64,000 nucleotides of DNA from Candidatus Aenigmatarchaeota archaeon (GCA_016180945.1 JACPAG010000003.1:107394-171393); one strand, 5' to 3'. Shown: positions 2,236 through 29,284, counted from the first letter of the stretch. The notes: generated by a model not told the origin, from the letters alone. Made by a program: numbers and translations.

Positions 2236-2448
2236 ACTCATGAAATGAGGGTATGGAGGTAGGGGATACATTCGAAAAGCAAAGCTTTTCGATATGGCAA
2301 AGAATCTTGGATTCTTTGAGCACGACTGGAAGGAGCAAGAATTGTAATACAATCGAAGAACAAAGTTCTTCGATGCATGGAAGGACTGAGCTCAGTCCTT
2401 CGAATGTGGCGCTCGACTTTTTGTCGCAGCAAAAAGGGGAGAGGGATA

Positions 2449-3213: not shown

Positions 3214-3429
3214 GATTTAAAGAAGGAAAGTTCGGCAATAAATATCTTGACGAAGTAATACTTCACAAGATTGTGAAGAAAAATAATATGGGATACATTC
3301 GAAAAGCATGGCTTTTCGATGCAAGAAGGACTGAAAGTCCTTCTGCACAGAAGGAGCAAAGTTCCTTCTTGTGTGCCAAAAACCTACGGTTTTTGAGCAC
3401 GACTTGCGACTGAAAGGAGTAAGGGGTAT

Positions 3430-5167: not shown

Positions 5168-5272
5168 CGGGCGCGACGGGATTCGAACCCGCAGCATCTT
5201 GGTCCGAAGCTTCGTTTTCTATTCGCGAAGCGAATAGAATCAAGCGCTCTATCCGGGTTGAGCTACGCGCCC
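5168..5272 (-). tRNA. tRNA-Arg (anticodon TCG) with a ~30-nt intron at non-canonical position 30/31
   Basis: Reverse complement reads GGGCGCG-TA-GCTC-AACCCGGATA-GAGC-G-CTTG[ATTCTATTCGCTTCGCGAATAGAAAACGAA]G-CTTCGGA-CCAAG-ATGCT-GCGGG-TTCGAAT-CCCGT-CGCGCCC-G. The acceptor stem is a perfect 7 bp. A perfect 5-bp anticodon stem forms only after the bracketed insert is removed. No CCA is encoded. Confidence 0.8.
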
Positions 5273-5285
5273 TCACAATATCATA

Positions 5286-5333
5286 ATAATATGGCAATCG
5301 ACTTTTTGTAACAACAAAAAGGGGATTATGTAA
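5286..5333 (+). promoter_or_regulatory. orphan copy of the conserved leader cassette, ending in a start-stop (ATG TAA)
   Basis: AATAATATGGCAATCGAC + hairpin CTTTTTG-TAACAA-CAAAAAG + GGGGATT-ATG-TAA. Same architecture as the cassettes at 2400, 25671 and 27151. Confidence 0.4.
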
Positions 5334-25557: not shown

Positions 25558-25670
25558 CTATCCCACCCCTGTCCCACTTTTATGTGGCAAATTATTTAAA
25601 GTTATGTTATACGTAAATTTATTACGAAATTCGGAATCATGTATAATTTGAGGCGAGGAACAAATTTTAT

Positions 25671-25705
25671 AATATGGCGCTCGACTAACCGGAGGTTAGG
25701 GGAGT
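25671..25705 (+). promoter_or_regulatory. conserved leader cassette upstream of the lrp-like gene
   Basis: AATATGGCGCTCGA + hairpin CTAACC-GGA-GGTTAG + GGGAGT + ATG. Confidence 0.5.
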
Positions 25706-27036: not shown

Positions 27037-27150
27037 AAATAGGTATCAAAATAATATGGCAATCAACTTGCGAAGTGTAGCGACCAAACCTTACAAACGA
27101 ATGCCATAAGAATTCGTTACATCGAAGAACCGTTTACGGTTCTTCGAATG

Positions 27151-27186
27151 TAATATGGCGCTCGACTTTGCGGAGCAAAGGGGAGT
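27151..27186 (+). promoter_or_regulatory. conserved leader cassette upstream of dapB
   Basis: TAATATGGCGCTCGA + hairpin CTTTGC-GGA-GCAAAG + GGGGAGT + ATG. Preceded by a hairpin array (27068-27150). Confidence 0.5.
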
Positions 27187-27933
27187 ATGAAGATAGCTAT
27201 CATAGGCTACGGAAAAATGGGGCATGAGATTGAACGGCTTGCAAAGACAAAAGGCATAGAAGTAGCCGCCGTTATAGACCCGACGGACAGCAGCGCTGCT
27301 TTCAAAGAAATAAACAAAGAGGCGTTGTCACAAGCAGACGTTGTCATAGATTTCTCTGTCCCTGATGCTGTAGCAGAGAATGTTCGCCGTGTTTCCAGCC
27401 TCGGCAAGAATATGGTTGTCGGCACGACAGGCTGGTACAACTCTCTTAATGATGTCAAAGACCTCGTTAAGAAAAGCAATATAGGGTTTATTTATAGCCC
27501 GAATTTTTCCATAGGCGTAAACCTGTTTTTCAGGATTGTTGACGAATCCTCGAAGTTGGTAAACAAAATCAGCGACTACGACGTTTTTGTTTACGAAGGG
27601 CATCACAATCAGAAAGCAGATTCGCCTTCCGGCACGGCTAGGGCGCTGGGCGATATAATTCTCAGGAATGTTAAGAGGAAGAAAAGGCTCGTCTTTGACA
27701 AACTGGACAGGAAAATCCTGCCGGAAGAGCTGCACGTTGCAAGCTTCCGCGCCGGCTTTATTCCCGGAACCCATGTCGTAGGTTTTGACAGCGAAGCCGA
27801 CACAATAGAGCTAAAGCATACGGCGAGGAGCAGAGCCGGCTTTGCGCTGGGCGCCCTGCTCGCAGCCCAGTGGCTAAAAGGCAAAACAGGATTTTTCACC
27901 ATGGATGATTTCATAAGCGATTTTTTCAAGTAG
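27187..27933 (+). CDS. dapB: 4-hydroxy-tetrahydrodipicolinate reductase
   Basis: KIAIIGYGKMG Rossmann start and EGHHNQKADSPSGTA signature. Confidence 0.9.
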   Translation: MKIAIIGYGKMGHEIERLAKTKGIEVAAVIDPTDSSAAFKEINKEALSQADVVIDFSVPDAVAENVRRVSSLGKNMVVGTTGWYNSLNDVKDLVKKSNIGFIYSPNFSIGVNLFFRIVDESSKLVNKISDYDVFVYEGHHNQKADSPSGTARALGDIILRNVKRKKRLVFDKLDRKILPEELHVASFRAGFIPGTHVVGFDSEADTIELKHTARSRAGFALGALLAAQWLKGKTGFFTMDDFISDFFK

Positions 27934-27967
27934 CAATCCTTTGGATGTATCAGAGGGAGAGGGGATT

Positions 27968-29284
27968 ATGATAGTAATGAAATTTGGCGGCACTTCTGTT
28001 GGCGACGCAGAGAGAATTAAAACCGTTGCCGAAATTGTTAAATCACAAATTGACAGAGACCCTGTAGTCGTTGTCTCCGCCTTTAGCGGCGTTACCGACG
28101 GCCTTATAAGACTGGCAAATGACGCAGTAAATAAAAACTCTAGTCTGGAAGAAATAAGAAATAGGCATTTTGATGTCATGAAAGACCTTGGGCTCGACGC
28201 ATCTTTGATACGGCACGAACTGGAAGAACTGGAAATTATAATCAGGGGTATTTCGCTCCTGAAAGAGCTTACGCCAAGAAGTCTTGATCTGGCCATATCC
28301 TTTGGCGAGCGGATGTCGTCTAAAATACTTGCAGCGTACATGTCTAAACTGGGTTTGGATGCAAAGCCGTACAATGCATACGACATCGGCTTTGTCACGG
28401 ATTCCAATTTCGGCAACGCTGAAATACTGGAAGAAACAGAAACTAACATACGAGAATTTTTCAATAACGTCAAGAGTCCTGTGACCGTGGTTGCCGGTTT
28501 CATAGCAAAAGACAAGCAGGGAGAAATAACGACCCTGGGAAGAGGCGGCAGCGATTATACAGCTTCCGTAATAGGCGCTGCTCTCGATGCAGAAGAAGTG
28601 CAGATATGGACAGATGCAGACGGAATAATGACAGCAGACCCGAAAATTGTTAAGGGCGCAAAAACCATCGATTATGTCTCTTATGACGAGGCTTCGGAGC
28701 TTGCATTTCTCGGCGCAAAAGTCCTGCACCCGAAAACCATACTGCCTGCCGTAAAGAAAAACATACCTGTTAAAACATTGAACACCTACAACCCAACGCA
28801 TAGAGGAACGACTATTTTGGAAAAGGTAGATAAGCAAAGCGGCATAATCTCAATAGCGTCCAAGAAGAACATTAAGGTCATAAATATCCGCTCCCCAAAA
28901 ATGTTTCTTGCGTACGGCTTTATAGCAAGAATATTCGATATCTTTGCCAATCTAAGAATACCTGTTGACTTGGTTTCAACATCAGAAGTGAACATCTCTG
29001 TTACAATCGATGGAAAATACGATACCGAAAGGCTGGTAGAAGAATTGAGAAGGCTTGGCGATGTCGAGATTAGAAATAACAGGGCAAGCATTTCAGTAGT
29101 GGCAACAAGGCTTGCTTCCACCCCGGGCATAGCTGGAAAGGTATTCTCATCTTTGGGAGATAACAAAATAAACGTAGAGATGATATCTTCAGGGGCCTCG
29201 AAAATAAACGAAAGCTTCGTTGTGAAGGAAGAGGACGCGGACGACGCCGTAAGGATACTTCATGAGGCGTTCTTTGGTGAGTGA
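27968..29284 (+). CDS. lysC: aspartate kinase
   Basis: VMKFGGTSVGD, GRGGSDYTAS and C-terminal ACT repeats. The ATG at 27968 is preceded by GAGGGAGAGGGGATT. Confidence 0.9.
   Translation: MIVMKFGGTSVGDAERIKTVAEIVKSQIDRDPVVVVSAFSGVTDGLIRLANDAVNKNSSLEEIRNRHFDVMKDLGLDASLIRHELEELEIIIRGISLLKELTPRSLDLAISFGERMSSKILAAYMSKLGLDAKPYNAYDIGFVTDSNFGNAEILEETETNIREFFNNVKSPVTVVAGFIAKDKQGEITTLGRGGSDYTASVIGAALDAEEVQIWTDADGIMTADPKIVKGAKTIDYVSYDEASELAFLGAKVLHPKTILPAVKKNIPVKTLNTYNPTHRGTTILEKVDKQSGIISIASKKNIKVINIRSPKMFLAYGFIARIFDIFANLRIPVDLVSTSEVNISVTIDGKYDTERLVEELRRLGDVEIRNNRASISVVATRLASTPGIAGKVFSSLGDNKINVEMISSGASKINESFVVKEEDADDAVRILHEAFFGE

Follow-up and report, generated by a model that had tools for sequence, protein, structure and literature searches.

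A covarying hairpin cassette reused at gene starts in a Candidatus Aenigmatarchaeota archaeon: a possible copy-and-paste promoter/start module

The dapB gene of a Candidatus Aenigmatarchaeota archaeon is preceded by a compact cassette in which an A/T-rich head, a short box, a mini-hairpin and a G-rich tail follow one another up to the start codon. The question raised by this locus is whether such a cassette (i) supplies a promoter; (ii) acts, once transcribed, as a structured RNA leader; (iii) is a selfish repeat with no role in expression; or (iv) hides a ribosome-binding sequence or binds a neighbouring regulator. The window considered here is a stretch of 64,000 nucleotides (contig C4, 107394-171393) of a genome (G000) of 987,615 bp, with 9 contigs and approximately 45% G+C. 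The source genome is archaeal and an archaeal 16S rRNA gene is present, the 3' end of which reads GGATCACCTCCA (end: CACCTCCA). This 16S gene (within C8:193777-200723) is stretched to about 4.7 kb by several inserts, and the insert near its 3' end contains an ORF resembling a LAGLIDADG homing endonuclease. Intervening sequences are also common among the tRNA genes of this genome.

An earlier note on the window had described five copies of the cassette, and all five are indeed present (Table 1). The copy at the hisN/suhB-like gene carries GAATGT in place of the TAATAT head. A probable sixth copy, long and divergent, was assigned by eye: it contains several nested hairpin modules, and its tail abuts ATG 3430. 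A repeat search of the window recovers the extended arms CTCGACTTTGC/GCAAAGGGGAG. Hairpins of the TCGAAGAACCGT/ACGGTTCTTCGA family are stacked 5' of many cassette copies. In the spacers 3214-3429 and 27037-27150, nearly all of the sequence is made up of small hairpin modules in stacks (for instance, GCAYCGAAGAAC-N5-GTTCTTCGWRTGT and GAAGGACTGAG/CTCAGTCCTTC), and these other repeat families frequently lie directly 5' of the cassette or are nested within it. A tRNA gene with an intervening sequence (5168-5272, minus strand; Rfam, 50.5 bits) has its 5' end 11 nt away from the start of the orphan copy's head; ARAGORN assigns this tRNA to Ala only when introns are allowed, and its own promoter is not obvious. 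This tRNA is the only Rfam gathering-score match in the window, none having been found for the cassette. As for the gene after dapB, which is aspartokinase-like by eye (N-terminus MIVMKFGGTSVG, 27941-27970), it is preceded by GAGGGAGAGGGGATT-ATG, that is, by a tail-like GGGGAT next to the ATG, with a GGGAG at Shine-Dalgarno (SD) distance; box and hairpin are absent there.

Table 1. Cassette copies and associated features in the window.
Feature	Position	Strand	Details
dapB copy, head TAATAT	27151-27156	+	TATA-like; part of the conserved TAAYATGG
dapB copy, box GGCGCTCGAC	27157-27166	+	consensus GGC-N-M-TCGAC
dapB copy, hairpin TTTGC-GGA-GCAAA	27167-27179	+	inner mini-hairpin with closing C-G, 27166-27180
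dapB copy, tail GGGGAG	27180-27185	+	followed by T, then ATG at 27187
dapB copy, base-helix 5' strand CTC	27161-27163	+	pairs with GAG 27183-27185
dapB copy, unpaired GA	27164-27165	+	opposite GG 27181-27182, 2x2 internal loop
dapB copy, predicted transcription start zone	27176-27180	+	predicted from TATA geometry and profile scan
dapB gene	27187-27933	+	TIGR00036 match, 1.2e-50
Hairpin module TCGAAGAACCGT/ACGGTTCTTCGA	27122-27147	+	separate repeat family; 12-nt perfect inverted repeat
Degenerate copy TAATAT-GGCAATCAAC-TTGCGAAG	27052-27075	+	box 27058-27067; without 3' arm and without tail
Full copy, LysM-type Lrp/AsnC regulator (lrp)	25665-25705	+	box 25676-25685, TAACC-GGA-GGTTA, tail 25699-25704, ATG 25706
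Headless copy, hisN/suhB-like gene	2408-2448	+	box 2408-2417, hairpin 2418-2435, tail 2436-2441, AGGGATA, ATG 2449
Orphan copy	5283-5333	+	box 5293-5302, tail 5321-5326, ATG-TAA 5328-5333
Probable long divergent copy (sixth)	3282-3429	+	head AATAATAT, box-like GGGATAC, tail GGGGTAT; assigned by eye

Genome-wide, the cassette has the consensus TAAWAT-GGCNMTCGAC, followed by a mini-hairpin of 4-8 bp, GGGGAK and, usually, 1-2 nt before the ATG. In the logo built from 107 copies, AWTATAATAT-GGC-N-M-TCGAC-T, the invariance of GGC and TCGAC is imposed by the search pattern, only N and M being free. The head values in this logo are T-6 0.97, A-5 0.93, A-4 0.93, A-2 0.89 and T-1 1.0, and an A-rich run lies at -14..-10. 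Nearly every box is followed by a perfect hairpin and then GGGGA(G/T).

Two pairs link the box to the tail. The first one, M with K, is found in 68 of the 68 simple copies (A-T in 33, C-G in 35; one further copy has G.T), and since the same hairpin sequence occurs with both M-K pair types, this pairing is not merely the mark of two sub-families. The second one emerges from relatives of the same order, the boxes of which read ATGGT[C/A]TAGAC...GGGTA and ATGGCATCGAC...GGGGA: across genomes, TCGAC always goes with GGGGA and TAGAC always with GGGTA. In an alignment of 36 distinct anchored rows, 97.9% of the cells are paired and both sides change in 6 of the 8 pairs, values reached by none of 500 shuffles; when the alignment is slid as a control, pairing drops to 41-68% in all cases. 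The GA and GG columns are invariant while the adjoining pairs covary. Taken together, M-K and TCGAC/GGGGA covariation argue for a 3-bp base helix, a GA/GG mismatch and a GNA-capped hairpin. The whole cassette is thus predicted to fold as a single-stranded head, TAAYATGG(Y)(N), followed by the 3-bp base helix, the 2x2 GA/GG loop, a C-G pair and a stem of 4-8 bp. The interior ranges from 11 to more than 100 nt when inserts are nested in it, and the base helix is retained.

The hairpin itself has a marked composition. Among 91 unique hairpins, 96% of the stem pairs are Watson-Crick and only 5 (about 1%) are G.T, while the loops, on a C-G closure, are mostly GAA (27) or GGA (11). T prevails in the 5' arm and A in the 3' arm (286 T-A pairs vs 41 A-T), and runs of T5-T6 occur in about one fifth of the copies (manual count). 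DNA mini-hairpins such as GCGAAGC and GCGGAGC are extraordinarily stable, whereas their RNA counterparts are far less so (PMC13037366). The GNA triloops on C-G and the scarcity of G.T would therefore suit DNA mini-hairpins and speak for an action at the DNA level.

Some other structural proposals were examined and rejected: (i) a fourth pair between box N and the base after K, which is inconsistent when checked by eye; (ii) a K-turn, as the 3-nt bulge is absent and the 1n position is G and not A; (iii) an upstream ORF from the box ATG, the frame and length of which differ by eye between two copies (it ends in ATGA in the dapB copy and stops after 4 codons in the lysM copy); and (iv) the head ATG as a relic start codon, there being no TATA at -31..-24.

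The earlier note had spoken of a reused expression module with structural covariation. This description is borne out at the scale of the genome, which contains about 110 copies with a covarying hairpin and base helix; the several gene-start copies on which the note had relied are real, and the extent of the reuse was understated. The motif is found far above chance: the pattern GGCN[AC]TCGAC gives 122 matches vs about 15 expected by our own arithmetic, 107 of them with an A/T head, and ATGGCNMTCGAC occurs in 95 copies vs 0 for the reversed control and 0-3 per genome in 69 related species genomes. The exact box is peculiar to this genome among the 70 species genomes of the order. Variant families are patchy: they are present in G049 and G051 and lacking in their congeners G009, G050 and G052, and the same holds for G023, with a variant family, and its congener G029, without one. 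The genomes counted as cassette-rich are G000, G007, G008, G031, G023, G049 and G051. A scan of genome contigs with a 16-base pattern returned only single chance matches, in unrelated bacteria. The cassette family is confined to a small number of lineages, all of them tiny DPANN archaea, and its structure defines it more than its sequence does. On contigs C26 and C29 of G051 (L143 / L265), a 61-nt unit made up of a cassette, ATG-TAA and about 20 nt is repeated in tandem; its cassette has the start-stop ending seen in the orphan copy of the window.

All copies within the genome point toward gene starts, and convergent spacers, which make up about 19% of the intergenic DNA, are essentially empty of them. 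Roughly 70-90 genes have a cassette at their 5' edge, and an ORF start follows in 51 simple and 34 longer copies; approximately 25% of the copies are orphans with no adjacent start, and about 12 are headless, 4 of these lying directly before a gene. A co-directional gene precedes 74 of 102 copies, often within 2-30 nt, and the positions occupied include the interior of the ribosomal protein cluster, the site just 5' of rpoA' and the spacer between dapA and dapB. The genes served, about 70 of them unrelated, encode, among others, RpoA', S9, L14, L1, proteasome alpha, NMNAT, a thiolase, DapB, the LysM-type regulator and a HisN-like phosphatase. Another cassette-preceded gene (C8:161438, +) encodes a CDC48/VCP-like AAA ATPase of 1117 aa whose first Walker A motif is split (GPPG-CLTGEAL...SHN-TGKT), which looks like an intein.

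The dapB locus shows what the site looks like without the cassette. Orthologues of dapB have the same N-terminus and lack the cassette: in G004 (69% identity) the dapA-dapB spacer is only 24 nt long, and in the closest metagenome relative (L150, 72% identity) GGTGAT lies three nt 5' of a GTG start. None of 80 metagenome loci retrieved through DapB (at most 72% identity) contains a cassette, and they serve as empty sites. In the genome studied here the same spacer measures 150 nt, is occupied by stacked hairpin modules and no longer has the GGTGAT SD of the relative. This loss suggests a swap of SD-dependent starts for near-leaderless ones.

The earlier note had read GGGGAG as SD-like. The data do not support that reading: GGGGAK supplies the base helix with its 3' strand and is no SD at working distance, given that (i) it is too near the ATG, mostly at 1-2 nt; (ii) relatives have GGGTAG or GGGTAT, with no pairing with CCUCC; and (iii) it covaries with the box. 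The commonest gap from GGGGA to ATG is 2 nt, in short and long variants alike, while the SD words of this genome start at -12..-8 from the ATG. The four headless copies that stand immediately 5' of a gene (the one at 2408-2448 included) have their tail 7-11 nt from the ATG, at SD distance. A comparison of SD words between cassette classes is confounded, because GGAG or GAGG also arises from the hairpin loops.

Of the two mechanisms put forward in the earlier note, namely (i) a head acting as TATA box and (ii) a 5' UTR whose hairpin abuts an SD, the first one has the better support. TATA words upstream of non-cassette genes cluster sharply at -29..-27 from the ATG, and the logo of these genes displays TTTAAAWA at -29..-22 and an A-rich run at -34..-32; leaderless transcripts are thus predicted to be the default in this organism. 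When a profile made from 557 upstream regions of non-cassette genes, taken without pre-selection, is applied to the cassette heads, they score above the 99th percentile of random windows (mean best scores, 3.6-3.8 bits; 99th percentile, 3.71; canonical mean, 1.22). The best offsets place the start-equivalent at +19 and +21 from G0, the first base of the box, and in the dapB copy +19..+21 corresponds to 27176-27178, the last bases of the 3' arm, at the junction of hairpin and tail. What the TATA reading does not account for is the variable distance from head to ATG.

At C2:202765 the start codon of a divergent pilin-like gene (MKAQAALEY...) lies 33 nt from the G0 of the cassette that serves NMNAT, and the sole TATA of the pilin-like gene (TATATATA, at its -22..-29) is the cassette head. 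With this spacing there is no room for another promoter of NMNAT. Within C2:202732-202775 the two genes share one TATATATA, which is flanked by an inverted GCCAT...ATGGC, and the pilin side reads TATATATGGCTTAGAC, 11 nt, ATG, a box-like head with canonical leaderless spacing.

The reading tentatively favoured here, at somewhat short of an even chance, is that the cassette is a promoter/start module spread by copy-and-paste, with very short leaders as its product and a palindrome that would act at the DNA level. From the patterns described we infer promoter activity, a start position, DNA folding and copying, in the following manner. The A-rich run would act as a BRE-like element and TATAATAT as the TATA box; the spacer of about 21 nt would be taken up by the fixed box together with the mini-hairpin; transcription would start where the A-rich 3' arm meets GGGGAK; and the 5' end of the mRNA would then lie only about 5-13 nt from the ATG. 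Such a near-leaderless start would replace SD-dependent internal initiation, dapB being an example. The complementarity within the sense strand would reflect folding of single-stranded DNA, during copying, insertion or promoter opening, and not an RNA leader.

Several observations count for this promoter/start module. The gene-start orientation with empty convergent spacers, the absence of the cassette from dapB orthologues and the headless copies with their tail at SD distance are all counted in its favour. Archaeal RNA polymerase terminates at oligo-T, so T5-T6 in a 5' arm can be tolerated only where transcription does not pass through that arm. Other observations count against it. The fixed TATA-ATG distance expected of leaderless genes is not found in the cassette copies: the ATG lies at G0+27..+44 in simple copies and as far away as about +140 where inserts are nested, so a start fixed at +21 would give leaders of 6 to more than 100 nt. 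Neither is hairpin length compensated by the spacer between tail and ATG, as a promoter-to-ATG constraint predicts (rho 0.05). What is conserved is the tail-ATG adjacency and the base helix, and a simple promoter needs neither of them, nor the GA/GG loop. The headless copies also weigh against a promoter, as does the less uniform A/T-richness upstream of TAAYATGG in relatives. Nor does this reading explain the GGCNMTCGAC box, and the search for a copying enzyme gave none.

A second reading is a structured RNA leader or punctuation signal, which is possible although somewhat unlikely. The cassette would be transcribed, often from the upstream gene, folded and recognised by a lineage-specific factor, with either a cut just 3' of GGGGAK, leaving a leaderless downstream mRNA, or a helix boundary that presents the AUG. 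A base helix that covaries at two positions around an interior of such variable length counts for this reading, as does the spacing from tail to ATG, which stays constant whatever the distance to the head. The 74 copies behind a co-directional gene, those in the ribosomal protein cluster and 5' of rpoA' included, also count for it, and headless copies need transcription from further upstream. Nevertheless, there is no TATA signal 22-30 nt upstream of the cassette; the NMNAT/pilin pair has no space for an upstream promoter; and archaeal RNA polymerase would terminate at the T5-T6 runs of the 5' arm. Moreover, near-absence of G.U and dominance of GNA triloops are atypical of selected RNA helices, no Rfam family and no nuclease were found, and a hand check of the mRNA context revealed no bulge-helix-bulge (BHB), the loop being a symmetric 2x2 GA/GG.

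In this genome the cassette immediately precedes one tRNA gene and is also present within introns in two others. In tRNA-Glu(UUC) (C8:189501-189621), a 46-nt insert located exactly between positions 37/38 consists of CTTTTG and a complete cassette; the tRNA-Glu(UUC) genes of relatives have no intron at 37/38, some of them having one in the D-loop. When paired by hand, the insert yields an hBHBh' made from the A-run of the cassette and GGGG (CG|C, CUUU/GGGG, AU|A, with h' UUUUG/CAAAA), and the MFE fold pairs somewhat differently. A second tRNA of this genome and one of G051 also carry a cassette in their intervening sequence. The tRNA-Glu insert appears to be a clean case of recent intron gain, and a cassette RNA that forms a splicing motif would be transcribable and foldable, in keeping with an RNA leader.

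The tRNA-Glu gain also belongs to a behaviour resembling that of mobile elements, which the earlier note had missed. Direct repeats of 17, 15 and 6 nt flank three copies, none of which abuts a start codon. In each of these the second repeat follows the tail immediately, and unrelated sequence of 15-26 nt precedes the head. Direct repeats of at least 10 nt flank only 1 of 112 copies in this genome, with two further cases in G051; a general target-site duplication was sought among the 112 copies and not found, most having none. Tandem cassettes and nesting with other hairpin modules occur as well. Patchiness within genera, the 46-nt gain in tRNA-Glu and the flanking repeats are regarded as signs of copy-and-paste. 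As regards candidate enzymes, the Y1 transposase PF01797 gives a weak fragment in this genome and nothing in G007, G031, G049, G051 or G023, while it is common in a cassette-free genus (g17). The reverse transcriptase PF00078 does not track the cassette either: it is present in G000 and G008, absent from 5 other cassette-rich genomes and present in many cassette-free ones, a weak negative given that the MAGs are incomplete. In G000 a reverse-transcriptase gene (C8:273-911, minus strand; PF00078, 1.2e-20) lies at a contig end. A T7-like RNA polymerase (PF00940) was not found in G000, and the control set likewise gave no match anywhere.

Could the cassette, then, be nothing but a selfish miniature repeat of the REP/MITE type, with no role in expression and confined to its present sites because insertions elsewhere are lethal in a genome about 86% covered by ORFs? 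Its patchiness, even within genera, the tandem and nested copies, the direct repeats at three copies, the gain inside a tRNA gene and the quarter of copies that are orphans would all be expected of such a repeat. This reading is nonetheless distinctly improbable: convergent spacers should collect neutral insertions and are essentially empty, orientation is always gene-ward, genes like dapB have lost their SD and now rely on the upstream sequence, no co-occurrence with Y1 transposase or with reverse transcriptase is seen, and most copies lack a target-site duplication.

The remaining idea, in which the cassette would sequester an SD as a riboregulator or RNA thermometer, or else serve the Lrp-family neighbour as operator, is largely excluded and very improbable: GGGGAG does contain GGAG paired with the box, a paired tail does lie at SD distance in four headless copies directly before a gene, and the Lrp/LysM-type gene does adjoin two copies, but the tail of most copies is too close to the ATG, the GGGTAG/GGGTAT of relatives cannot pair with CCUCC, the palindrome varies in sequence and length unlike a protein operator, and the link to the Lrp-family regulator drawn in the earlier note finds no support in some 110 copies that precede about 70 unrelated genes, with three more at or inside tRNA genes.

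Different known systems offer points of comparison. Correia elements (CREE/NEMIS) of Neisseria and promoter-carrying MITEs consist of at least 100 short palindromic copies beside genes. The cassette resembles them in its putative ability to supply promoters and to be co-transcribed as a hairpin, and in its absence from the orthologous sites of relatives. It differs from CREE/NEMIS in being archaeal and about 40 nt long, in having a base helix of 3 bp where those elements have long terminal inverted repeats, in lacking a fixed TA duplication (at most copies there is none, and at three it measures 6-17 nt), and in ending 0-4 nt from start codons while always facing the gene. Terminal inverted repeats and a target-site duplication of fixed length, by which MITEs are recognised, are not found in the cassette. 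REP/REPIN-RAYT elements and the PATEs of IS200/IS605 are likewise short, strand-specific extragenic palindromes in high copy number, probably recognised as single-stranded hairpins; in contrast to them, the cassette shows no co-occurrence with Y1, no GTAG head, no inverted REPIN pairs and a strict gene-start bias.

Compared with archaeal BRE/TATA leaderless promoters, the cassette has a head that fits the profile and a predicted start at a purine about 21 nt downstream, but its spacer holds an invariant box and a palindrome, and its ATG comes 6-20 nt or more past the predicted start. Putative mobile promoters are near-identical upstream sequences before non-homologous genes of one genome (PMC3575422). 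The cassette is reused 5' of non-homologous genes in the same way, and is set apart by its covarying fold with a short invariant box, its lineage-specific variants and its copies in tRNA introns. Finally, the hairpin promoters of the N4 virion RNA polymerase and ssiA of RSF1010 have a 5-7 bp stem with a GGA/GAA triloop (GCGGAGC, CCGAAGG) (PMC13037366). In them, as in the cassette, a capped stem stands next to a conserved single-stranded flank where synthesis starts or, for the cassette, is predicted to start; however, the N4 hairpin is on the template strand and serves a T7-like polymerase, whereas the GNA loop of the cassette is on the sense strand.

A bolder proposal is, in our opinion, unlikely: the cassette may belong, as its cis element, to a hitherto undescribed machinery that generates 5' ends, in which (i) the fold would be cut just after GGGGAK, so that operon transcripts would be divided into leaderless mRNAs; or (ii) a sense-strand DNA mini-hairpin in the opened promoter would set the start. 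Such an element would spread by itself and could create tRNA introns able to splice from the outset.

In any case, the cassette is a compact case for separating DNA-level from RNA-level selection on a covarying hairpin, as it combines within about 40 nt an invariant mismatch and GNA caps. Its copy in tRNA-Glu, where the repeat would have supplied its own splicing motif in a recent gain at the canonical 37/38 position, bears on the origin of archaeal tRNA introns. And should the cassette prove to be a promoter/start module that spreads by itself, it would illustrate the means by which a reduced archaeal genome can split conserved gene clusters into separately started units.
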